Assembly: GCA_951406725.2 (NCBI GenBank)
Contig: OX597818.1
Coordinates: 33,542,001 to 33,606,000, forward strand
Origin: Octopus vulgaris
Lineage: Eukaryota
Length of the DNA stretch: 64,000 bases
Reading direction: 5' to 3'
Shown here piece by piece: positions 4,625 through 64,000 of this stretch. Below the pieces are notes generated by a model, which saw only the letters and a list, made by a program, of their open reading frames with translations, did not search any database and was not told where the DNA came from. The position numbers were made by a program, and so were the translations under genes. Each line of letters starts with the position of its first letter. Position 1 is the first letter of the stretch.

Positions 4625-5034
4625 TCGAGCCAAAATCTTTCCTACTCGAGACACAATGTCCGAAATTTTGGGGGAGAGGGCCAGTCGATTATATTGACCC
4701 CAGTACTGTATTGGTACTTAATTGATCAACCCCGAAAGGATGAAAGGCAAAGTCGATCTCGGCGGAATTTGAACTCAGAACGTAGAGGCAGACGAAATAC
4801 ATATTTCTTTACTACCCACAAGGAGCTAAACACAAAGAAGACAAACACGGACAGACAGACGGATTAAGTCGATTACATCGACCCCAGTGCGTAACTGCTA
4901 CTTAATTTATCGACCCCGAAAGGATGAAAGGCAAAGTCAACCTCGGCGAAATTTGAACTCAGAACGTAGCTGCAGACGAAATAGCGCTAAGCATTTCGCC
5001 TGGCGTGGTAACGTTTCCGCCAGCTCACCACCTT
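4625..5034 (-). mobile_element. SINE family B, dimeric copy
   Basis: Two cores CCCCGAAAGGATGAAAGGCAAAGTC; head at about 5034. Confidence 0.9.
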
Positions 5035-5359
5035 CCACGTAGTGATATTGAAGCCAGGCCCAAGTTTCTTCTCAGAGAGATACGCATGCGCCTATGTTAA
5101 ATTTGGAAACTATAACTGATTCCGTACTTTTGTGTGGTTGGTCAAACTCAAGGAGCAGCACTATTTTTAAACAAATTGTAAGCCAGAGTAAAGCGTTAAG
5201 AACATAAAATTATACATCGATACACGCATACACTCACACATGCGCACGCACACACATGCATATACAAATATATGTGTATAAATATAAATATATACATAGA
5301 CACACACACACATATATACATATATATATACATATACATATATATATAGACATATATGT

Positions 5360-11984: not shown

Positions 11985-12379
11985 ATTCTTTTCTGCTATA
12001 GGCACAAGGCCTATAATTTGGGAGTGGGGGATAGTCAATTTCATCTACTCCAGTGCGTAAATGGTACTTATTTCATCGACCCAGAAATGATGAAAGGCAA
12101 AGTCGACCTCGGCGGAATTTGAACTCAGAACGTAATGGCAGACGAAATACCTATTTCTTTACTACCCACAAGGGGCTAAATACAGAGAGGACAAACAAGG
12201 ACAGACAAACGGATTAAGTCGATTATATCGACCCCAGTGCGTAACTGGTACGTATTTAATCGACCCCGAAAGAATGAAAGGCAAAGTGGACCTCGGCAGA
12301 ATTTGAACTCAGAACGTAGCGGCAGACGAAATACCACTAATCATTTCGCCCGGCGTGCTAACGACTCTGCCACCTCGCC
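11985..12379 (-). mobile_element. SINE family B, dimeric copy
   Basis: Two reverse-complement cores; head at about 12379. Confidence 0.9.
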
Positions 12380-12403
12380 GGCTTAGAGTGGGTATATATT
12401 ATC

Positions 12404-12632
12404 GGCGAGCTGGTAGAAACGTTAGCACGCCGGGCGAAATGCTTAGCGGTATTTCGTCTGCGTTACGTTGTGAGTTCAAATTCCGCCGAGGTCGACTTTG
12501 CCTTTCATCCTTTCGGGGTCGATACATTAAGTACCAGTTACGCACTGGGGTCGATGTAATCGACTTAATACCTATGTCTGTCCTTGTTTGTCCCCTCTGT
12601 GTTTAGCCCCTTGTGGGTAATAAAGAAATAGG
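12404..12632 (+). mobile_element. SINE family B, monomer with TSD
   Basis: Flanked by GGTATATATTATCG at 12391-12404 and 12631-12644. Confidence 0.9.
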
Positions 12633-12992
12633 TATATATTATCGCACGCATTAAGCGATGAAAAAGAGACATTTTAAGCAGCTTCACAGATTTCTCTCCG
12701 ATTTTCTCTCTTTTTCTCTCTCTCTCTCTCTAAATATATATATACACACACCACACACGCTCATACACACACATAAGTGTGCGTGAGCGCGCGTGTGTGT
12801 GTGAGTGTGTGTGTGTACGTATATGGGTTAATGCAGAACTAAGTCACAAAATGGTAATGCAAATGTTTAGCGGCCATGACACGTATAGGATACCCCTCTG
12901 GTTCCTTTGCTCATCTGTCTGTATGTATGCACGTATATGTGATATATATATATATACACCCAAACACACACACACACACATATATATGTATG

Positions 12993-18554: not shown

Positions 18555-21500
18555 AACGCATGGAAATCTCTGAAGGTGACCCACCCAACATCATTGCAGT
18601 GGCACTTAAAAGTAGTAATTTTTTCTAGAACTACAGCCCAGGTAGAGCGCAAAAAACACGAATTACTCCGTTCTTATTCTCTAATTAGACAGCATATAGA
18701 CACACTAGACCTCATCCTGGGAGGAAACTGCTCCAAGGATGACAGAAAAGAATGAAAGAAACCTCCAGAGCCCAACAATCCCTCGAAGGAAGAAAACAAA
18801 AGCCACGTCTGAGGGGCCTGCAAATGAGTGAAACAATGATACTGGTTCGGCCTCCATCACGCCAGAAGACCAAAGAGGTGTGAGAGCCGAAAGAAGAAAA
18901 TATGAAGACAAACCCAACAAAATAAAAGCTGTCAAAAGCAACGAAGAACGAAGAGTCAAAGAAAGGAAACAGGAGAAACAACCGAATATGCTGATACGAA
19001 ATGGAGGTTCCCCAACAGAAGCTACAGGAGTTGGAAGGGCAAAAGCAGGAACTCTTGCAAATTCTACCAGCAAGTACACTGCTGGTACGGTGCTGATGAT
19101 GCAAACTGTCGCTTTGCACACTGGAAGCCCTGCCAAAACCACATGGGCCCCAGACAACACTCCCTTCCCCGAAGAGGACAAAAGGAAAGGCACCAAAGTA
19201 GTAAAAATAGCACACTGTCTACTTCAGAAAGACAATATGCAGACGCAGTGCGCGGTCCAGCAAACGGCTAGCTTCATCCAGGTGTGAAAAGGGTGGCAGC
19301 TGAATAGCAATCTTTTATGTGCATGGCACAAAAGATTGTCCAGCATCTGACCTGGCTTCAAACCCAAGCCTAGAACTACGCCACCAACACCACCAACAGA
19401 TACAGGATGGCAACCACTAACACCAACACACACATTACAAAGATATATCTTTTGAATACAGGAGGGCTGTTACATGGCAACAGTAAATCAAAAATCTCAT
19501 TCCTGAGAGACCTTGCGACATGCAATCAAGCTTTATGCATGACACTTGTAGAAATGCATCTTAGACATGATATAGGGGATGCCACAATATGTTGTCATAC
19601 GCTCAAACAGAAAGGAGAGGAGCCATGGTGGAGTTGCTGTGTACATCCGAGAGGACCTCACGCCCTAGGTCCTGCTGTTATATTCTAATTCAGTGTGTGA
19701 CACTCTAATTGTACACATAAGACAACTTAATATTGTTATATGTACTACACATCGCCCACCAGATGCTCTGAGTCATACAGACAAATTTGAAGACTGCTTA
19801 GTAAAGATAGGAGAAGTTCTCATCAAACTGGAATAACACATTAATGTATTCCTTTTGGGTGACTTTAACATCCCAAACATAGAATGGAATGGTTTGGAGG
19901 ATAGATTCTCCCAGGAATGACACACCAACAGCAAACACAAGCAGAGTCCCTGCTCCAACTTACAAATCCCTCTTCCATGGAACAAAACATGCTGCAACCA
20001 GCCAGGGCAAATAATATACCGGATCTCAGCTTCACAAACAATATGGACATTATCCATAATGCTAAAGTGACACCGACGCTGATCTCGGATCACATTATAA
20101 TAGAACTGTCTATGTATGGACCAAAAGCTACTGCAGACATGCAGCCTATACGAAGCACCCAAAATCTCTCCAAACTAAACTTTCACAAAGTAAATTGGAA
20201 GCTGATTGAGAAAGAGATCCTCAAGCAGGATTGCCCTAAATGTCTCTCCACACCAGACATTGATATGAAACACAAACATTTCATGTCCATAATACAAGCA
20301 TTGTATGACAAATCTGTCCCATTGTGCAAGGCCAACATACACAAAAACGGGATCCCCAGAGAAATAAAAATTCTTATGAGACGATGGACAAAGATTACGA
20401 ACCGCCTGAGCAAGCATCCCAAAAGTGGCGATAAATCTCGTCTGGAGAGAGTGCTATTGGAAACTGAGAAATGCCTGCATCAGTCTCATGAAAATGAGAG
20501 AGCAGATAAAGAAGCTTTGTTTATAGAAAATATCAAGTCAAACTCTAAAGCCTTCTTTACGTTTGCCAATAAACACCCTTGATACGCCACAAGATAGGAC
20601 CCCTCTTCCAAAAAGGAAACCCCATGAGGGTAAGTGAAATATTGAACGAACAGTTCCAAAGTGTACTCACTATACCGCTGTAATACAGGCTAGTGAACAA
20701 ACCAGTGGAATTCTTTGACACATTACCTAAAACCAAAGAGGTTGGAAAAATTGAGTACATAAACATTGAAGAAGATGTAATTCTGGCCATAGATGAGGTT
20801 GACACAAACTCAGCGGCTGGCGTGAATGGGTTTCCGGCGTTCCTACTCAAATCATGAAGCATGCTCTTACAAAACCACAGCAGTTTTTCTTACAGAGCTT
20901 CAATGCAAGAGGTAAGCTCCTAGAGAAATTGAAGGAAGGAATAATATGCCCTATCCATAAGGAAGGAAGCAGAGCAGATGCTAAAAATTATAGGCCTATA
21001 TCTCTGACCTCATACATCAGTAAAGTCAAGGAACGAATAGTCCGCGAGTAACTAATCACATTCCTAGAAGAAAATGACTTGCTGACTGACACCCAGCATG
21101 GATTTCGTCCAGGTGGAAAATGACTCAAGTGTGGATGTAATATATCTCGACTTTGCAAAAGCCTTTCATAAAATTCACTATGGTATGATATGTCACAAAC
21201 TGCGCGATCTCGGCATATGCAGAAAACTTGGAGAATGGCTGCACAACATTCTAAAGGATAGACGTGAGACAGTAGTGGCAAATGGAGCCACCTCCAAGGA
21301 AACGCAAATTGCAAGTGGTGTTCCACAGGGCACTGTCTTGGGGCCACTGCTGTTCATAGTAGCCCTCTAAGACATGCCCTCGGCTGCTCAGCTAGCCACC
21401 CTTGCTAGGTATGCAGATGACACAAAAGTCTCTCAAACAGTACAAAATCCTGCAAATATTGCACATCTGCAACGGGAGTTGGACGCAATATACAAGTGGG

Positions 21501-25774: not shown

Positions 25775-25975
25775 TTGGTTTCAAATTTTGGCACGACGCC
25801 AGCATTTTAGAAAGCAAGTAAGTCGATTGCATCGAACCCAGTGTTCAAGTGGTACTTATTTATCGAACCCCAGAAAGGTGAAAAGCAAAGTCGACCTCGA
25901 CGGACTTTGAACTCAGATTCTAAAGACGAACAAAGTGACACTACAGCGCGCTAATGATTCTACCTGCTCACTGCC
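25775..25975 (-). mobile_element. SINE family B, diverged
   Basis: Reverse-complement core GAAAGGTGAAAAGCAAAGTCGACCTCG. Confidence 0.8.
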
Positions 25976-26007
25976 CTTTAACTACCTCTAATATTATCAA
26001 CAAGAAA

Positions 26008-26300
26008 AGCGGTGAGCTGGCAGAATCGTTAGCACACCGGGCGAAATGCTTAGTGGTATTTCCTCTGTCTTTATGTTCTGAGTTGAAATTCCACCGAGGT
26101 CGACTTTGCCTTTGAGCCTTTTGGGATCGATAAATTAAGTACCAGTTGTGTACTGGAGTCGATCTAATCGACTGGCCCCTTCCCCCAAAATTTCGGGCCT
26201 TGCGCCTACAGTTGAAAAGAGTCGTTAGCACACCCGACAAAATGCTTAGCGTCATTTCATCTATCTTTGCGTTATGTGTTCAGATTCCGCAGAGGTCGAC
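26008..26300 (+). mobile_element. SINE family B copy followed by the head of a second copy
   Basis: GCGGTGAGCTGGCAGAATCGTTAGCAC at 26008; second GTCGTTAGCAC at 26221. Confidence 0.85.
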
Positions 26301-26807
26301 TTTACCTTTCATCATTTCGGAGTCGAGCATTGGGATCGATGTAATCGCCCAGCTCCCTCCCCCGAAATTGCTGGCCTGGTGCCCTAATTTGAAACCTATA
26401 TTACCAACAACAAGTGTGAAATAAATATATTTACCTGTCATCATTTCGGAGTCGAGCGTTGGGATCGATGTAATTGCCTAGCTCCCACTCCCGAAATTGC
26501 TGGCCTGGTGCCCTAATTTGAAACCTATATTACCAACAACAAGTTTGAAATAAATATATTTACCTGTCATCATTTCGGAGTCGAGCGTTGGGATCGATGT
26601 AATTGCCTAGCTCCCTCCACCGAAATTGCTGGCCTGGTGCCCTAATTTGAAACCGATATTACCAACAACAGGTGTGAAATAAATATATTTACCTTTCATC
26701 ATTTCGGAGTCGAGCATTGGGATCGATGTTATCGCCTAGCTCCCTCCACCGAAATTGCTGGCCTGGTGCCCTAATTTGAAACCGATATTACCAACAACAA
26801 GTGTGAA
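26301..26807 (+). repeat. 129-bp tandem array, about 3.9 copies, derived from SINE-B 3' half plus flank
   Basis: Units start TTTACC at 26301, 26430, 26559 and 26688 and are near-identical. Confidence 0.95.
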
Positions 26808-27403
26808 TCATTGCGGGATTCTCTATTTGTACGCTTTCTTTTTAGAATGGAAGCTTATAATGGATCATGCAATGTGCAAAAAAAAAACTGTGCCTGAATT
26901 AATTAAAGCACCAACAACTATATCAGTTACAAGGGCAACAAACATTTCGCCTAATAAACACGATAGGCATACATACACACAAATGCACACGCATATCTAA
27001 AACATTTTAGATCATTCTACTTATATTTAAAATCAATATCCAGCTGTAGTAATTAAACCAGCAACAATAATATATAAAAATAATAAATAGAGATTAATTA
27101 TATTTAGTAAGGTAGCAGATATGAAAATATGAAACAAAATTGTTATTTCGAAAATTAACGAAGCCAATACATTAATATCACACAGTTAAACTACATAACT
27201 GGATTGTATGATCATTCACAGAATGTGAAAGACAATGTTTAATGCATCCTTAACCTGCTTTCTTGTAGAAGTCATTATTTTTAACAGCTGCAGCTCAATG
27301 GGGTGGGAGGATGGGGCTGAGGGGAATGCCGTACTGCTGCTAAGAACAATGATACACACACAGAAGCATACGCACGCACACACACACACATACATACATA
27401 CAT

Positions 27404-27635
27404 ATTTCTTTGCTACCCACAAGAGGCTAAACACAGAGGGGACAAACAAGGACAGACAAACGGATTAAGTCGATTATATCGACCCCAGTGCGTAACTGGT
27501 ACTTATTTAATCGACCCCGAGAGGATGAAAGGCAAAGTCGACCTCGGCGGAATTTGAACTCAGAACGTAGCGGCAGACGAAATACCGCCAAGCATTTCGC
27601 CTGGAGTGCTAATGATTCTGCCAGCTCGCCGCCTT
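27404..27635 (-). mobile_element. SINE family B, monomer
   Basis: Close match to the reverse complement of 12404-12632. Confidence 0.9.
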
Positions 27636-28189
27636 ACACACACATATATACATACATATAGATTCACACAAACATGGGCGCAAACTCAAGCGCACATAAG
27701 GATACACATCATAGAAAAGCAGAATGGAGGGGGCGGAGCAAGAGCACACAGGAAAACGATGTGTCGTTGAAGATGTCACAAATGTATGACGAAAGATTTT
27801 CAGGACAATAGACATGAGTTAAAGTAAGTACAGTAATAAACGAATGAGGAACAAATATATAGTGCGTGTGTTTATTTGGCAAAAACAAGAAAAAATGACC
27901 GTCCCGAAATACAACAACAAATGTTATTTTTTTTATAACTATTACGAGGAGTACGACTGTGATTTGAATGATTAAAATAGCCCCCCTGGGTCATAAATGA
28001 CCGTTCGATTCCACCTAGAAAGTTATCCTATAAGGCAACTTTCTTTGTTGAATGAGATTCTGCAAGAAGTTCTTTGAAGATGGCAAACACTTGTTCTTGA
28101 ATGAGCTCTCATAGCCCTCACTGTAAAATTAACGCAGGATCTAACACCGAGCAAAGTTTGTTTATGGAAAGCCAGCAGTTATCTATGCA

Positions 28190-38309: not shown

Positions 38310-40340
38310 ATTTATAGAATAGATACTTAAGAGTGTGTAGGCAAAGCGAGAATTTTTAAACTCTCTCGTTTAATAATTTGCTGCTAGAAAAAAGAATATT
38401 ATAGCACTCCGATGTGTAGAGTTGGCAAATTCTATCTGGTGTATGATAAGCTTTTGAAGAACATATAATCTTCCAGCTAATCTTCTAACTGATATTATTG
38501 TCTTTTAGTTTCTAGATGAATTTACTAAGACTAGTCGAAGAACTTTTGGTGTGGCTTCTAAAAGTATACTCATGGTTGACCAATCTAAGTTTCATATATG
38601 ATTCCGTAGAACCAACGTAGAGAAAGAGTTTATCTTCAGCTTCAAGTATAGCTTGGTATACTTAATTCTTCCGTTTGCAATAATTATTAAATTCACAGTG
38701 CTCTTTACCCTGCAATCACAGAACTTACTAAGACGAATACTAGAATTAGAAGATGGGTTATGTGCAGTAGACTCCCTTTGATTGTTCATATTAGAATATC
38801 CTGACTTTGGTATAACTGTTATATTATGTATTTGTTTATTGAGAATATTATGTTTACGTTTAACGGAAAAATTATCTAATTTAGCATAATTCATAGAAAT
38901 AATTACGGGAAACAGAATGACCAATACTAAAATTCCTACTCTGAATTATGTCACTACATTTGATTTTATGACGGGAGAAGTGTTTGCTTATTATCCGACG
39001 TATGATTTTAATTAAGTTTGTTTTTACTTACTTAACCAGATAATATTCTCCTTTATTTTTACCAGAATTGGGATTAAGTTTGTTATAGTGGATTTTTATA
39101 TAAGATATATATTTTAAATTTCTTTTTATATTGTAAATAATGCTAATGTTGCTATTATTATTGTATGGTCTCATGTTCGTAATGACCTTTTCAGAGGCTA
39201 ATTTATTATTTATATTTTCTGATTTTGGTCATAACTTGCTTTTGGTTTGATATGTTTAGGGAGTAATATATGAATGTTTATATTGTTATCATCAATATCG
39301 AGATAAGCGCTAGTCTTCAGGTCTCTCTTTATCGTTTCTACTACCCTATTTCCATGCTGGTTATTTTTGTTCAGTATACAGTTATTATATAATCTATTAG
39401 TTCTTTTATCGGTATTTACTTTGTTAATCATAGCTTTAGTCTTAAGTCTTTTTGTATCTAGGTTATATTTTCCATCTTGTAGAAGCTTTTGCTTGTTATT
39501 AATCATATGTGAACCATTCTTGATATGTTTAATTTTTTTGTTTGTACCCTGTTTTACCCAGTGTAGTATTATATAATTACTTCTTATCGTTAAAGATATC
39601 TTCGTTAGATGAGAGGTAATTTATTCTTTTTTCGATGTTGTTGACTAAACAAATTAAAATAGACTTTGGTTGATTACTTTTTGTATTAATATAGGGTATT
39701 GTGGAGTTAAGCTTATGGTATTGCAAATAATTTCCAATATTCAGGTTTAAATTCACATGTAATTAACTGAGCTATTCTCTGTTCCATTTGAAATATCAAA
39801 TCCAAATCGGTTAAAGAACTGCTAGAATTTTTTCTTGTATAATTCTAGCTTTCTATTTGAAGGTTTATTTTAGCTAAATGCATAAGCATTATATATAGGA
39901 TCTAACTTCTTAAACTTATTGGTAAATTGCCTGCATCCTTTCAAGAAATATGTTAACCTTAGTTCTATAAGCTCATAAACCCTGACGAGTTTCTACCCCA
40001 TACAGTTGAAAATGATACCAATTCTTAGCAAATACTTAGAATTACGTATCAGCAAGGGGCATGAATCGAAACATATGTGTTGGTTTTTGGCATCTGCCAT
40101 TTCTGTTAGAGCTTTACAATTCATAATATATTTGTATTGTTTTTATAAAAAATTTCAACATCTTTGTATCTTACAAATGAATTATTTATATTTCCATTAT
40201 ACTCCATTTTCTTTCATTCAAGATATATATATATATTTATAACTAACGTTTCTGAGAATTTACTCTCATTATCGTCGGTTATGGAACTTACAAGTAAAAT
40301 AGAACCGCTATTTTGGAATTCATCTTTGTTCATTATTAAA
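38310..40340 (-). mobile_element. Decayed Penelope-like retroelement (RT thumb plus GIY-YIG endonuclease)
   Basis: Minus strand about 39830-39520: FFNRFGFDI...YHKLNSTIPYINTKSNQPKSI...RINYLSSNEDIF...YNTTLGKTGY. About 38730-38320: CDCRVKS..LNNYC..VYQA..LYVGSTESYMKLRLVNHEYTF..STSLSKFI.KLK..ISWKII..CQLYTSE..LLNE. Multiple stops; outer boundaries approximate. Confidence 0.85.
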
Positions 40341-40610: not shown

Positions 40611-40613
<3 letters not shown>

Positions 40614-40800
40614 ACAATTGAGGGTAAAATTAATTAATCAATTTCACCAAGTGTTCAGTATGTAAAAGGACCATTTAAGGCGAATTCAAAATATTACATT
40701 ATATAATTAGGGCTTAGTAAAATAAATTACTTTGCCACATACTGAACTTAGTAGAAATAGCAGCCAAAAAGAATTTTTTTAGCCATTTCTACTACTTAAA
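40611..40800. mobile_element. Interspersed repeat related to 63266-63460, probable Penelope terminal-repeat fragment
   Basis: Shares AGGGT-AAATTAATTAAT, CAATT-CACCAAGT, ATGTAAAAG, TAGAAATAGCAG-CAAA and TTCTACTA with 63266-63460. Confidence 0.6.
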
Positions 40801-41720: not shown

Positions 41721-42100
41721 GCAAAACGTTAGCACGCTGGGCGAAATGCTTTGCGATATTTCGTCTGCCGCTACCTTCTGAGTCCAAATTCCGCCGAGGT
41801 CGACTTTGCCTTCCATCCTTTCGGGGTCGATTAAATAAGTACCAGTTACGCACTGGGGTCGATGTAATCGACTTAATCCGTTTGTCTGTCCTTCTTGGCC
41901 CTCTGTGTTTAGCCACTTGTGGATTGTAAAGAAATAGGTATCACCTCTGTCTTAACGTTCTGAGATCAAATTCCGCCGAGTTCGACTTTGCCTTTCATCA
42001 TTTCGGTGTCGATAAATTAAGTACCAGTTGTGCACTAGGGTAGATCTAATCGACTGGCGCGCTCCCCCAAAATTTCGGGCCTTGTGCCTTGAGTAGAAAC
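41721..42100 (+). mobile_element. SINE family B, dimeric copy
   Basis: Two cores; terminal CCCCCAAAATTTCGGGCCTTGTGCC tail. Confidence 0.9.
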
Positions 42101-42194
42101 GAATATACTACAAAGTGTATTAAAGGTTTATAAGTCAATTCCGTGACTACTATGAGTTCACATTTCGATTCAATGTAACCTTTTTTTTTCTTCG

Positions 42195-44698: not shown

Positions 44699-45135
44699 CG
44701 GAAGTGAAGAGGGAGACAGAGACAGAGAGAGTCAGGGGCAGAGAGAGCAGGAGTGTGTGAGTAGCACGGAGACTAACAAAACTTGTGAAAGAAGATATAT
44801 TTGTCTTCTAGAAAGCAAACAAAAAAAATCAGAAAAACGGATTACTTTATCAGAAAATTCTGACGCAAATGAATGATTTTTTAAAATAAATATTTTAGCA
44901 CTCTATTTTATATATTATTTTTTTTAGAATTAGTTATCAGTTCTATCATATTTTTCACATATTTTTTAAATCACAATTTTGAAATCCGTTAAAGTAACGT
45001 CTGTGTTTGTTTTTGGTTATATTATACAAAATCAGCAATGATGCGGACATTAATATAATACAGTTCTTTATGTGTTTCGTTTTAAAAAAATTTGTAGATA
45101 AATTCAAAATTATTACAGACACGATGCTGATGATA

Positions 45136-45393
45136 TTGGACTGGTGCACAATTATTGCGGCTTTTTTTTTTTTTCAAGCAATTGCATTCAACAAAAACAA
45201 TAACAACATGTAACAAAAACATCTTTAAATGATTATTCCGAAGCATATTCACCATCTACTTCAAATACTGAATCTCATTTGCTTGGCAGACGATCAGACC
45301 GTCATTTTAAAATGTTTCTTTTAAATATTATTATTTTTTTGTTGAAGAAATTTTGTTAAAAAAAAAAGCCGCAATAATTATGCACCAACCTAA
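45136..45393 (-). mobile_element. Mariner internal-deletion derivative (MITE-like)
   Basis: TIR TTAGGTTGGTGCATAATTATTGCGGC (Hsmar1-like) at both ends with TA flanks. Internal minus-strand DRLPSK*DSVFEVDGEYASE* matches a mariner transposase C-terminus. Confidence 0.85.
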
Positions 45394-45579
45394 TAGTAAC
45401 CATGTTGATAATGATGAGAAGGAGGATGAGGGATAATGCGGTTGTTCTGTACGATCACAATCACGAACAAAAATATCAATAATAATATAAGTAATATTTG
45501 GTATCTGTTTTGCTATCATCATTAAGAACAAAACAGCATGATCATCAGTATCAACATCATCAGTGACAATAATAATCCT

Positions 45580-45798: not shown

Positions 45799-47484
45799 CC
45801 AACAATAATGAGAACAATATCTTTTTCTTGGTCAGAAGTACCAGAGAAACGAGGACTGAGAAGAAGTTTTACACCGAGGAAGAGGTAAAATGAACGAGAG
45901 AGATATATCGATGAGTAATAGCAAAAAGTATAAAAATAACAAAACAGAACAAGAAAAATAAACCAGAAAATATGAATACGGCAACCACAAAGGTGACCTG
46001 AAGCGCGCCACACACACACACACAACCCTAACCCAAACCTGAAAGTAAGTGGTTAAATTCGCCTTGCACATAAGGATATAATTTCAGCTAATGATGTTGA
46101 TATTACATATCTCAATCACCTGTATTATGCTTCCGCGAAGATTTCAACGATTCTATGTGATGAAAAGATTAGAAAGCGAAAACATTCCCAGAAGAGTGTA
46201 TTCGACACAAAATTCAGCTACTAAGGTCTGACATAGAATGTTTAAAAAACCTTTAGTTTGACAAAACTATCAAACCCACAAAAATCCGAAAATTAAAGAA
46301 AAAGTATAATATAAAAACCATACTTGACATCGATACCACCATCGAAACCAACAAGCAAAATGTATGTGCTAAAGCTGCCCGCATATCACGATTTGAAAGG
46401 CACTTTTTATTCTTCAAGGACAACAACATGTTCAAAAATAACCCCATAAACTTTTACAGGAAGATAAGGAAAATACCAGTTAAAGTAAAGTATGTTCCAC
46501 CAAAAGAAGAAGTGCAGGAATTTTGGAATAAAGTTTGGGAAGAAGTAAAAGGGCGGCTTCGATTGATAGAATATCTACTGACTTAGACTCCTTAGAGGAG
46601 CAAAAGTGGGAGGGTATCAAGGTAGAGGATGTAAAATCTGCTCTCAGGAAGTCAAGCAAATGGAAATCCCCAAGAAATCCCCAGGAAAGGATGAAATTCT
46701 TAACTTCTGGTTGAATGCCTTCCCAGAGAGACATGAACTGCTAACAAAACTTTACAACAATGTTTTGCAACAACCTAGTATGATTCCCTTTTGGCTAATT
46801 AATGGTGTTATATTCCTACTTCCAAAAAAATGAAGGAACAATAACAACAATGTATAAATTTCTAACATCCCGTCTTGACTAAATATACCAAATTTTTTAA
46901 TAGAAAGTGGCATATTCTCTAATGTGCAAAAAGGATTTAAATGTTAGTCCTATGGTTGTAAAGATCAGATACTCATCAACAAGATGATCTTGGAAGATTG
47001 TCACACACGACGCAAAAATCTTGTCGATAGCCTGGATAGACTATAAAAAAGCTTTTGATAGTCTACCACATATCTGGATTAAGCAATGTCTGGAAGTGTA
47101 TAGAATTGCACCTTCTCTGCGAAACTTATTGTCTGTAAGTATGAGATCATGGAGAATGACACTGACTTTGAACAGTAACAATGAATCTCTCAATGCTGGA
47201 GATGTAAAAATTCAATGTGGAATTTTCCATGGTGACTCTCCATCACCAGTCCTCTTTTGTCTAGCCTTAATACCTTTCTCGAAATTGCTCGATGGTGTAC
47301 AATATTGCTATAAAATGTCTGATAAAAATATAAATCATCTCTTTTACATGAATGATTTAGAGCCCTTTGTGATAAATGACCAACAACTACAGGGATTACT
47401 AGCAATTGTTAAACAATTCAGTGATGACATTAGCATATGCCAATACACACAGACAGAGAAATTAAAGCGAATAGGCCAGATATA

Positions 47485-47697
47485 CAGTTCTATATTTAAG
47501 AGATGAGGAACTATGTACATTATTTAATATATAATAATAACATCAACAACAACATCGAAAAATACCTTAGAAATGAGAACCCAGGTTCGAAATTTCCCCA
47601 AGACACCTGATGAAGGCTAGAGGGTATATCAACCGAAACGTTGTGTGTTAACAACAAACAAGATGAGGACAAAATCCGTCAAAATGTAAATAATGTA
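47485..47697 (+). mobile_element. About 213-bp hammerhead-containing insertion inside the R4/Dong element
   Basis: Interrupts the NRPDI|VV coding run. Flanked by AATAGGCCAGATATA (47470-47484) and AATAAGGCTAGATATA (47698-47713). Confidence 0.8.
47603..47646 (+). ncRNA. Minimal type I hammerhead ribozyme
   Basis: ACAC-CTGATGA-a-GGCTAG...CAACC-GAAA-CG-TT-GTGT. Intact core, AACGTT palindrome, imperfect stem II. Confidence 0.7.
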
Positions 47698-48127
47698 AAT
47701 AAGGCTAGATATAGTTGTCAGAGGTCATGAAGAAAAAAATGCTTTCTAATTGTTGTATCAATACCAGCTGATGACAAACGTTTCTCTAAAAGAAATGGAG
47801 AAACTTTCAAAATAAAAAGACCTGGAAATAGAGGTAACTCGAATGTGGAATCTAAAAACAGAAACAATTCCTATCATAGTGGTTGCATTAGCTATGATAA
47901 AAAAATATTCAGACAAATACATAGCAAAAAAACACCAGGACTTACAAATATATATAACATACAGAAAATTGCACTAGTGGGCACTGCACACATCCTACGC
48001 AGAACACTTTCAATACAGTAACCATAAGAGCATCACAGCAAACCACAGCATATACCCAAGACACACAGAGCTGCGCTCGGTAGTGAAATGAAAGCACGTT
48101 ATAAAAATAAAACTACCGAATAATAAA

Positions 48128-48696
48128 TATAGATGTTTACGATCTAATTGGATTCTTTGCCGTCAAATTGAATTATTTGCAATCAAATTTGAATTTTTCA
48201 ATTGGTGCTCAAGCCTTGAAAATAAAGAGAGTTAAACTACATCAGCCGTAAGGGAATACATGTCTATCTTATCTAACTCATCCAGTAGAGCCCACTAATT
48301 GATATCTGAAAAGTTCGATGAAATAACTCATGAACACTGCGATAGCTTCTACCAAAAGATGCTCCGTTACGTCGACCGGTCTGACAAGGGAAGATAATAG
48401 AAAAATAATCATTCGTTTATGATCTCCCCTTGTTCAGATCGTTCGATGTAACGGAGCATCTTTTGGTAGAAGCTATCGCCGTGTTCATGAGTTATTTCAT
48501 CGAACTTTTTAGATATCAATTAGTCGGCTCTACTGGATGAGTTAGATAAGATAGACATGCATTCCCTTACGGCCGATGTAGTTTAACTCTCTTTATTTTT
48601 TTTCAAGGCTTGAGCAGCAATTGAAAAATTCAAATTTGATTACAAAGATTTCAAATTTGCTGGCGAAGAATCCAAACTAGATCGAAAACATCTATA
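48128..48696. mobile_element. Foldback MITE, about 570 bp, with about 270-bp imperfect inverted arms
   Basis: Starts TATAGATGTTT and ends AAACATCTATA. Arms are complementary throughout, e.g. TAGCTTCTACCAAAAGATGCTCCGTTAC versus GTAACGGAGCATCTTTTGGTAGAAGCTA. TA at both termini. Confidence 0.9.
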
Positions 48697-48699
48697 ATA

Positions 48700-48711
48700 A
48701 TGATTAATATT

Positions 48712-60506: not shown

Positions 60507-61687
60507 GCAGTAGACAAGCATACATATATATATAGTTATGTGACTGTTTATTTGTATATATAATGTGTGTGTGTGTGCGTGCGAGAGAGAGAGAGAGAGA
60601 GTTTTATGTATATATACTCACACATGCACACACGCATATGTTATATACATATATGTATATGTGTCTGCCCGCGCGTGACTGCGCTATTTGAATTTATGTA
60701 CATTTATGTTTAACTATTTCACTCACTATTAATTCTGACGTTATTTTTTTCCAACTCTTTATTCCAAATCAATAAATTGCTTTTGTAATATTTCTTTTTT
60801 CGTGATTCTTTGAACAAATTCATATTAGCAATGAGTGTTTCTGTGAATAAAAACTTCATCAATCTACTAGCGACTTTTCTATTTTTGCAAGAATTAATTC
60901 GCTTAAGATTTTTAGATTAAATTCCTTATGTTAGTATTTTCAGACTATATTTCTGCAGTTCATAAAATTCCTAGTTTTTAGTAAAATATTCCTGCGATAA
61001 TTATCCCCGTTTTATTTGTAGTACATAAAAACTGTGGTCGAATAAATTATTTCGGTGCTCGAAATTGTACTTTTGTTATAGTTTAGAATCATATTGAATA
61101 AAATGTTTATTACTAAATATATATCCATAATATATATACTTCAGGTTTCGTTGTGGAAAGACGTGGTTTTTGAGCTCCTGAAAAAATTAAGAGAGTTACC
61201 CCTAAATCGAATAAAAATCTACTAAAACTGACAAAAAACGTAGTACTTGTTATTTCATAACGATTTACCATAATATATTGGTAAAAAAATTTAATATATT
61301 ACATTAAAAGTTCAATATTTTACATTAAAGTAAGTAACGCAAGCCAGAGTTATCCTCGAAGAAAGCACGTACTTTCATTTGCGGTCGCGTGTAACACGAT
61401 TTTTCTTTTAAACCATACTTCTTCGTACAATAACAAGGATTGGAATTCTACTTCTTGGCAATGAGTATCCTACTCATTTTGTTTATTTTGTTTTATGTTT
61501 GGTAATACCGGATGAAAATTTGAGTTTAGACGTATTGTTTATTTACATTTTATTTGAAAATTTACGGCACCTTTTTATTTGAAAATTTACGAAACCTTTA
61601 TTTACAAAACCTTTTTTATTTTCATTTTATCACTATCGTTTTTCCTTTAACTTTTTCTTACAACGACCGTTTCGTTTACATTCTATT

Positions 61688-62190
61688 GTGTTCCACGGGG
61701 CACTGTCTTGGGACCACTGCTTTTCATAGTGGCCTTCACAGATATGCAGACGATACGAAGGCGGGAAAGGTATGCAGTAATACACATCTGGAAGATCTTG
61801 GAAGGTATTGTGCCAAATTTTGGCACTGAAAGCTACACCAATGCCAGAACGGGTCGACACTGTACAGTATCAAAGATCCCAGCAATACCATCGCACTTCA
61901 GGACTAGTTACTGCAACAGCTTAGGTTTCAGGTGCCCCCAGCTTTTTAATATTCTCCCAAAGAACCTGAGGGACCTACACAGAGTGGACGTAGGTGTTAT
62001 CAAATCAATACTGAACCCTTGCTGTCGAGAGTCCCAGATGAACATACCTCGCGGCAAGAGGTGCAAATGAGGGTAGCGACATCAAATTCCCTTATTCACC
62101 AACTGCCACATATTACATATTAGAGGAGGCTCTCAATAATAACAGTATAGCAAAACAGCAGTGCCCCAGTATGGCCGCAGCTCTGAAAAA
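61688..62190 (+). mobile_element. CR1-group LINE 3' fragment with a large internal deletion
   Basis: GTVLGPLLFIVA..YAD is joined directly to RRERYAVIHIWKILEGIVPNFG...YCNSLGFRCPQLFNILPKNLRDL. Ends GTGCCCCAGTATGGCCGCAG. Confidence 0.85.
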
Positions 62191-63142
62191 GATGATATAT
62201 TTTAGTGATATGTTCTATTGACCTCAGACTGTTCGATATCTTATGAGTAAATGTACTTCATTACGCATCTTATCTCCCAATGTAATTCAATGAAAGACTC
62301 TCCTGCGTTCTCCTACTCACACAAATTGCTCACATGACGCAACAATTTAACTCTAAAAATATTTTTGCGTTCTTTTTTCTCTGAAACGAATACGAATTAT
62401 TACAGTATTTTACAAATGTAAAATTTACAATTTATATATACAGAAACATGGCGTATTACATTATTTTACGTATATTTTTAACCTTTAGTATCAAATTATA
62501 TAATAGTATGGCTATTTAAAGATTAATATCAGTGCGGCTATTATTTTATATTCACTTGTTAACAGTAACACTTATTAGTGCTTTTGACTGCATATTGTAT
62601 AAAAATTACATCGCAGCCACGAATGATTATTTTTTTCTTTCGGGTTTTGACTTTTCTCTATTAGTAAATATTTGTCTTTCATAAAATACTCATCTGAAGA
62701 GGTAAATGGTATCGTTGTCATGTGCTTAAACTTAATAAACGCACGACAGAATCAATCGTCTGTTTCTTTTGAAATGACAGCAAGCGGAAAATTCTCATGG
62801 ACGTAGAGTACTCGAGAGACTCGAGCAAAGTCTGACTGAAGTTTGTTGACATTTCAATTCGTTTCGACTTTAACCGTTTAACCTTTTCACAAATAATAAA
62901 ATTTGGTCAATAGAGAAGAATTATTTGGGATCAGTAAACGATTTTAAGTCCTTAACGTTTTAGGGAAAAAAATTGCTTGTCTGTGATTTCTTTTGATATA
63001 ACTCTAATTTAATACAAATTATCAACAAACCAACAAATAAAATGTATATGATAGGAGTAAGATACCATAGACTGAAATTTGAAATCAGTAATTTAAATGA
63101 GGTTAACAAACCACGTACAAACACACGCGTGTGTGTGTGTGC

Positions 63143-63190
<48 letters not shown>

Positions 63191-63224
63191 TTTATATATA
63201 CTTATATATGAATGCATGTATATA

Positions 63225-63268
<44 letters not shown>

Positions 63269-63554
63269 TAATAATAAAGGGTGAAATTAATTAATTAGGG
63301 ATAATTATCAATTACACCAAGTAGATTTCGGCATGTAAAAGCCCCATTCGAGGAAACTTTAAGTAATACTAAGTAATTAAGGGTTTAGCAACGAATTGCC
63401 CAACACACCGAATTTAGAAATAGCAGTCAAAGAGATATAGCTATTCCTTCTACTAAAAGGGGGATCTCAGTAAAAACACAGCACTTGAAAGGCAAACAGA
63501 CAGGTAAGAAAGAAAGAATGAAATGACGGCAATCCATCATGCAATTTTAAGTTA

Positions 63555-63646
63555 CCTACGGACGTACGTTTCGAGATCAAGTTTTAGGATAGCATAAGAA
63601 TTAGAAAATTCTACTTTACCCAAACTTCTTCTCTCGTCGGCGCAGG
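63555..63646 (-). ncRNA. Type I hammerhead-like motif, mirror copy
   Basis: Reverse complement of 63782-63873. Confidence 0.75.
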
Positions 63647-63781
63647 ATACCACAATTATGAATAATTGTATATTAAATTTTGAGATACTAGAATGCATCA
63701 TCTCAACTCAGTGATGATGCATTGAGATGATGCATTCTAGTATCTCAAAATTTAATATACAATTATTCATAATTGTGGTAT

Positions 63782-63873
63782 CCTGCGCCGACGAGAGAAG
63801 AAGTTTGGGTAAAGTAGAATTTTCTAATTCTTATGCTATCCTAAAACTTGATCTCGAAACGTACGTCCGTAGG
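63782..63873 (+). ncRNA. Type I hammerhead-like motif with long stem II (U4C core)
   Basis: CCTGCG-CCGACGA-GAGA..AAGTTTGGG...CCTAAAACTT..TCTC-GAAA-CGTACG-TC-CGTAGG. Six-bp stem I, palindromic stem III, GUC triplet. Confidence 0.75.
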
Positions 63874-64000
63874 TAACTTAAAATTGCATGATGGATTGCC
63901 GTCATTTCATTCTTTCTTTCTTACCTGTCTGTTTGCCTTTCAAGTGCTGTGTTTTTACTGAGATCCCCCTTTTAGTAGAAGGAATAGCTATATCTCTTTG

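Follow-up and report, generated by a model that had tools for sequence, protein, structure and literature searches.

Penelope-like elements (PLEs) are presented in the legend of Figure 2 of Craig et al. 2021 (PMC8557442) with an inverted 5′-truncated copy adjacent to the 5′ end, with hammerheads within their pseudo-LTRs (pLTRs) and with (TA)n targets. Head-to-head PLE junctions with palindromes were described by Arkhipova et al. 2013 (PMC3846280), where self-priming on an antisense template was proposed and left open. The hammerheads of PLEs were reported as dual motifs on opposite strands, 100–700 bp apart, with a small palindromic helix III; a single minimal motif did not cleave, and dimers showed low cleavage (Cervera and de la Pena 2014, PMC4209133). 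The PLE protein of the anole was reported to nick and extend both strands at AT-rich DNA and is a predicted dimer, its hammerhead is protein-assisted, and insertion in vitro proceeded without cleavage (PMC11167929). How PLEs make their inverted ends and what their hammerheads do is called open in PMC3846280, PMC8557442 and PMC11167929. Non-LTR retrozymes are non-coding head-to-tail tandems of 150–450 bp whose type I hammerhead has a helix III of only 2 pairs (Cervera and de la Pena 2020, PMC7229834); with such a helix III, monomers showed some cleavage, 22% within one hour, and dimers cleaved to a greater extent (PMC7229834). According to a 2026 preprint (10.64898/2026.07.22.740005), animal retrozymes are derived from PLE pLTRs. 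Inverted duplications linked to L1 have also been described (10.1101/2024.12.14.628481). Penelope in cephalopods is treated in PMC8967140, and 31 recently active PLE families were counted in Octopus vulgaris (PMC13282606).

The whole stretch of O. vulgaris DNA analyzed here, termed the window, comprises 64,000 nt and ends within a palindrome. Probably, this palindrome consists of two head-to-head 5′-truncated copies of a hammerhead-bearing family end, most likely the inverted pseudo-LTR of a young Penelope-like insertion. It shares with the insertions of Adineta vaga Pen2a and other EN+ PLEs the head-to-head copy at the 5′ end, the unequal truncation, the palindromic junction, the AT-rich/(TA)n target and the hammerhead in the repeat. 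It differs from them by an 11-letter templated insert that is offset by 13 letters, and an ORF, a target duplication and a tail are not visible within the window. In common with the PLE hammerheads presented in PMC4209133 are the type I topology, the small palindromic helix III, the occurrence of two motifs on opposite strands at a distance of 100–700 bp and the high variety within a genome. In contrast to these, helix II is an arm of about 60 letters, position 9 is followed directly by 10.1 without an additional letter, and C is found at core position 4 (C4) in most of the depth of the family.

Palindrome geometry and the repeat family

The window is microsatellite-rich animal-type DNA with a G+C content of about 35% and an N count of 0. 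Around a 15-letter spacer, 63428-63706 and 63722-64000 form arms without a single mismatch (279 of 279 letters, 100% complementary), and the match is still running at the window edge. Thus, the initial annotation, which had proposed arms of at least 279 bp without a mismatch, was confirmed in this respect. The features of the locus are compiled in Table 1.

Table 1. Features at and around the palindrome, given in window positions.
Feature	Position	Strand	Basis or remark
(TA)n-rich microsatellite, likely insertion target	63146..63265	.	adjoins outer (3′) end of left copy; sequence and (TA)n preference of PLEs as given in PMC8557442
Left copy, 448 letters of the family terminal module (pseudo-LTR-like), 5′-truncated at 63713	63266..63713	−	family contigs in four of four runs
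Type I hammerhead motif, left copy; predicted cut after 63561; core position 4 is C	63555..63646	−	exact mirror of the + motif
First 7 spacer letters, family sequence, left copy only	63707..63713	−	contig loose ends behind 63711-63713
11-letter templated insert, reverse complement of 63692-63702	63713..63723	+	overlaps by 1 letter with left copy and 2 with right copy
Right copy, exact mirror of 63428-63706, ends at window edge	63722..64000	+	mirror of left outer end expected at about 64162
Type I hammerhead motif, right copy; predicted cut after 63867; self-complementary 8-mer 63859-63866	63782..63873	+	sequence, fold, descriptor
Putative spliceosomal intron, GT..AG with pyrimidine tract, starts at the 3′ edge of helix I	63873..63975	+	read by eye; mirror 63555-63453 on −

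As in PLEs, an AT-rich/microsatellite target was found at the left end, where the 3′ end of the left copy adjoins (TA)n at 63265/63266, and an inverted 5′-truncated copy lies head-to-head at the 5′ end in the assembly. A small internal inverted repeat is located at 63653-63668 in the arm, upstream of the hammerhead.

Part of the stretch 60700-63760 was contained in 20 of the 24 public runs listed, which stem from 11 studies. The contig sets of four runs, namely X1, X2 and X4, which carry the same species label and come from three studies, and X15 (RNA by guess), were compared with 63266-63755, and 1685 (X1), 669 (X2), 2320 (X4) and 65 (X15) family contigs were placed. The arm is an abundant dispersed multi-copy repeat with many variant letters, as 669–2320 contigs were obtained per DNA run. 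Summed contig depth does not equal copy number, and depth shares are approximate. In X2, a contig over 63601-63680 showed 1 difference in 80 letters at a depth of 1502, whereas another contig of X2, 703 letters in length, had a depth of 12.3. Taken roughly, this depth ratio suggests a subfamily numbering on the order of 100 near-identical members, and the presence of such a contig in a run from a different study speaks for the youth of the subfamily. The letters of the window at 63590 and 63651 were present in X1 and X2 and absent from X4 (same species label, other study), which hints at a subfamily difference between populations.

In X1, X2 and X4, the family contigs matched to 63711-63713 and then went on with different letters. 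Thus, the element extends over the first 7 letters of the spacer, which brings the left copy to 448 letters. This also bears on the most improbable notion that, instead of a PLE end, the unit is a MITE-like DNA element of the fold-back type or belongs to the non-LTR retrozymes. With its few hundred non-coding letters, its type I hammerhead and its 2-pair helix III, it resembles retrozymes (PMC7229834), and no reading frame was seen. However, retrozymes are arranged in head-to-tail tandems, whereas the copies here are head-to-head with hammerheads on opposite strands, and other copies go on past 63713 with letters that differ from the unit's own 3′ end. A fixed fold-back unit, for its part, would not continue past the centre in other copies, and according to the 2026 preprint, the retrozymes of animals go back to PLE pLTRs in any case.

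The palindrome is documented at the assembly level, and the contig sets of the four runs gave no read support across its centre. No contig covered 63725-63729 in any of the four runs, which is an uninformative result, with about 80% of X1 and about 76% of X4 scanned, filtered records and possibly other individuals. The X1 depth of 4.69 in the bin 63725-63741 was due to a single contig (depth 6.65) on 63730-63755. A low-depth loop between high-depth repeat nodes would easily be pruned from contigs. One X1 contig (depth 6.65) linked 63755 to 63653 with 4 letters between them, and this may be a variant copy or another fold-back at the 63653-63668 hairpin. A technical fold-back is unlikely. In that case, only one arm would exist in the animal, as a genuine 5′-truncated copy, and its mirror image would stem from a chimeric read or from faulty assembly. 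Such an artefact would produce arms without any difference, and the far end of the mirror lies outside the window; however, the turn sits inside the 448-letter element, 60–70 letters from the hammerhead on its upstream side, a place at which inversions have been reported for PLEs, and the junction carries an insert templated at an offset of 13 letters instead of a plain turn in a window without N. Fold-back reads accounted for about 0.55–0.6% of the Nanopore genomic reads in one survey, but were virtually absent from HiFi reads in the same survey (PMC12870357), which would count against an artefact only if the present assembly was built from HiFi reads.

The left copy (63266-63713) had stops in all six frames, and no RT or GIY-YIG frame tied to the family was found within the window, beyond which the remainder of the element is located. 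Scans with exact motifs found no locus in prokaryote genomes or metagenome contigs. A single viral match (L001) to an exact motif was attributed to chance, since the likeness was limited to 18 letters. The family was not found in the published literature, and two of its motifs were absent from one supplementary file of PMC8557442; it may already be catalogued in repeat libraries (Repbase, Dfam).

Hammerhead motifs and predicted RNA folds

In the + motif, helix I is formed by 63782-63787 and 63868-63873 and is followed by the core at 63788-63794 with C at position 4. Helix II begins at 63795, opens with 4 pairs and continues in a long extension to 63855, and GAAA is located at 63856-63859. Helix III consists of 2 pairs with a palindromic loop, and the predicted cut lies behind the GUC site, after 63867. 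Among the elements of the hammerhead core (C3 U4 G5 A6 N7 G8 A9, G12 A13 A14, NUH and three helices), all were present but U4, which is replaced by C. With the exact mirror of this motif on the − strand, each arm holds an outward-pointing hammerhead motif, as had been annotated initially. A type I motif inside a terminal repeat is found in PLEs, too, and the canonical U4 occurs in part of the family.

A relaxed hammerhead descriptor matched once per strand in the window, i.e., at these two copies, and once in 40 Markov-resampled 64-kb sequences. The 116-letter hammerhead region had a fold z of −3.38, and 0 of 200 shuffles were as stable. The minimum-energy fold mispairs the hammerhead core and lies 4.7 kcal/mol below the hammerhead-compatible fold. 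The Rfam hammerhead models gave no match at the gathering score (0 matches), and none of the 28 matches at E up to 10 was a hammerhead. Rfam matches to miRNA precursors at the E-value level were set aside, being below threshold with scores generic for hairpins.

Some of the family variants fell into the helices. Both partners of one helix II pair (63805, 63845) are hit by variants; one helix I variant changes G-U to A-U; and a common variant at 63797 (47–92% of depth) breaks a helix II pair at a cost of 6 kcal/mol if it occurs alone. At core position 4, the U4 share of depth was 6560/57468 in X1, 7014/25402 in X2, 10883/30736 in X4 and 14.1/19.4 in X15 (3 contigs). C4 is the majority family state in the three DNA runs, with 65–89% of the summed depth as compared to 11–35% for U4. 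The proposal that C4 is a defect private to this copy is not supported, given its predominance in the family in these three runs. A natural U4C hammerhead variant has been described with considerably lower activity in vitro, viroid infection still being possible (cited in Perreault et al. 2011, PMC3088659). The octopus motif shares this core change, but the viroid is an RNA pathogen, whereas here a genomic repeat family with a predicted ribozyme is concerned. Failed cleavage had been named as a refutation of the annotated finding, which does not hold since PLE hammerheads cleave poorly or not at all as monomers (PMC4209133) and the anole hammerhead needs protein (PMC11167929).

The 8 letters 63859-63866 are self-complementary (predicted duplex of −9.8 kcal/mol), a feature permitting a dimeric helix III. 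Since the two hammerheads lie on opposite strands, dimerisation within one RNA would not occur. When 573 letters were folded in silico, a single hairpin of −505 kcal/mol resulted, in which 0 of 6 helix I pairs were formed, while RNA starting at 63700 or 63722 formed 6 of 6. The expectation that the hairpin competes with ribozyme folding was thus supported in silico. It had also been annotated that a transcript from either strand carries one ribozyme and its antisense; in such a head-to-head pair, read-through transcription, whichever side it enters from, yields the antisense arm before the ribozyme arm, giving a long hairpin in which the ribozyme is predicted not to fold. According to the predicted folds, the ribozyme could form only in RNA starting near or after the centre of the palindrome.

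Judged from its sequence, the GT..AG stretch at 63873-63975 may be the intron that is usual in PLE ends. Its putative donor is located at the 3′ side of helix I, whereas the intron end of Drosophila virilis maps to the 5′ side of helix I. The loose ends of the subfamily diverge at 63454, yet stay pyrimidine-rich on the sense strand. No spliced joint was found among the 65 contigs of X15, a run that is only guessed to be RNA.

The junction and its possible formation

The insert at 63713-63723 is the reverse complement of 63692-63702, and an 11-letter match of this kind was obtained in 13 of 20,000 random spacers of local composition. The initial annotation had described the spacer as containing the reverse complement of the adjacent arm; the match is real, but its length is 11 letters and not 9. 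The long mirror begins at 63722, which is 13 letters further out on the template than the insert. An insert with this offset is found as two successive priming steps would leave it.

The following path would yield the junction. First, the endonuclease of the element would nick the (TA)n tract, and the reverse transcriptase would copy the RNA from the 3′ end of the element (63266) to 63713. Second, the free cDNA end would fold back on 1–3 paired letters and copy 10 letters of itself. Third, the end would be released and would re-prime by a 2-letter match at a site 13 letters further out, and copying of the arm from there would generate the mirror. Fourth, the far end would be joined to the target. 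In the predicted folds, the unextended end formed no stable hairpin (0.0 kcal/mol), and the extended end reached −10.1 kcal/mol.

The + strand alone contains every template that the junction needs. When read on the − strand, a second molecule is required for 63707-63713, and both paths need two switches. Thus, fold-back is the simpler reading, although it is not proven. Twin priming, in which both target strands are nicked, two cDNAs are started from the 3′ end of the element and grow toward each other, and one of them slips back 13 letters on its RNA before both are joined on 1 letter of homology, would give an identical product without any fold-back, fits the junction equally well, needs the same number of switches as the fold-back path and has a counterpart in the anole PLE protein, a predicted dimer that cleaves and extends both strands (PMC11167929). 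It is nevertheless quite unlikely, as it requires a second template, and the arms share every allele at the 28 listed variable sites of a heterogeneous family. Two independent RNAs would share all alleles only if one source locus dominates. The 28 sites are all those within the arms among the 40 listed of 51 variable sites, and the arms are identical at each of them, minority letters included, which is as expected from one template.

Neighbouring repeats, age and implications

Several other repeats were observed in the window. On the − strand, 40613-40800 is related to the outer end of the palindrome at 66% identity (score of 155.5 as compared to at most 75.5 in 300 shuffles). Like the left copy, this relative ends on (TA)n; it has TA runs on both sides, is truncated at the putative intron acceptor and lies just upstream of a decayed frame at 38311-39860. 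The decayed retroelement frame (− strand, probably extending to about 40500) contains RT-thumb and GIY-YIG-like parts in order, and it had 2237 homologs at E up to 0.001, with a YRDD RT motif, which were collinear on mapping back. By its motifs, it is a putative PLE, perhaps of the Hydra clade. Neither this frame nor 10 homologs taken from the 150 listed had a relevant Pfam match, and a word-seeded protein search found none. A link of the family to the decayed frame via the upstream relative in the same orientation was rejected, since the relative has its own TA runs on both sides. Likewise, the 3′ flank of the decayed frame showed no similarity to the arm (score of 121 as compared to up to 153 in 30 shuffles), so no link was drawn from it.

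An older palindrome with an 18-letter spacer and AAT-rich ends is located at 48119-48705, and its arms are identical at 259 of 281 letters. It was rejected as a second PLE example, as no hammerhead was found there. A 32-residue frame within it presumably resembles the end of a Tc1/IS630 transposase, and Pfam gave no match for this frame. Head-to-head pairs of an abundant short repeat were found at 12147-12635 and 25821-26173 (arms identical at 211 of 233 and 124 of 151 letters, respectively), and the same repeat occurs near 2266-2855, 4636-5038, 27394-27639 and 41724-42107. A MITE-like element with inverted arms (80 of 94 letters identical) lies at 45134-45395, and units of about 129 letters are repeated in tandem at 26301-26807 (93–95% identity). 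Three LINE-like fragments were present on the + strand, i.e., 46991-47503 (RVT_1, E 2.9e-08), 19908-20579 (weak endonuclease match, E 0.02) and 61654-62067 (no relevant domain match).

The palindromes without a hammerhead in the window raise the question of whether the mirror was made after insertion by host repair of a break within an existing copy, as a fold-back inverted duplication, or whether older arms were homogenised by gene conversion. Templated inverted duplications of about 5–34 bp arise at breaks via microhomology fold-back in yeast (PMC11724301). This origin is very unlikely here: with 259 of 281 letters identical, the arms at 48119-48705 show that arms are not always homogenised in this region, and the near-identical contigs of high depth in the run of another study point to a young subfamily.

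The absence of differences in 279 letters is compatible with an arm divergence of up to 1.07% (95% bound), which corresponds to up to about 1.5 million years if 0.0036 per million years, the rate given in PMC13282606, is applied. Arm identity shows youth with a loosely bounded age and does not show present activity. A very recent insertion by self-primed fold-back synthesis in a family that may be active had been proposed initially. Of this, a PLE end formed by fold-back or template switching fits the junction anatomy and the published architecture, and the X2 contig with 1 difference in 80 letters at high depth supports a young subfamily; "very recent" is only loosely bounded, as identity allows 1.07% divergence, and youth is not activity.

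The instance itself is ordinary, since inverted hammerhead-bearing PLE ends have already been published, and its notable points are the junction footprint and the core with C4 in the majority. We put forward tentatively that the junction is a footprint of PLE second-strand synthesis, in which the first-strand cDNA would snap back, abort after about 10 letters and re-prime without antisense RNA. On the same tentative footing, the family would have spread to a very high copy number mostly as C4 copies, full-strength cleavage being dispensable, and the U4 copies may be the transcribed ones (14.1/19.4, 3 contigs, in the RNA-like run as compared to 11–35% in the DNA runs). Perfect hairpins of this kind would supply long double-stranded RNA. 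With a young and abundant subfamily, fold-back, twin-priming and antisense-template models would become separable by junction statistics. The natural C4/U4 core polymorphism and the clean junctions would be material for a direct test of how inverted ends are formed and of the role of the hammerhead.
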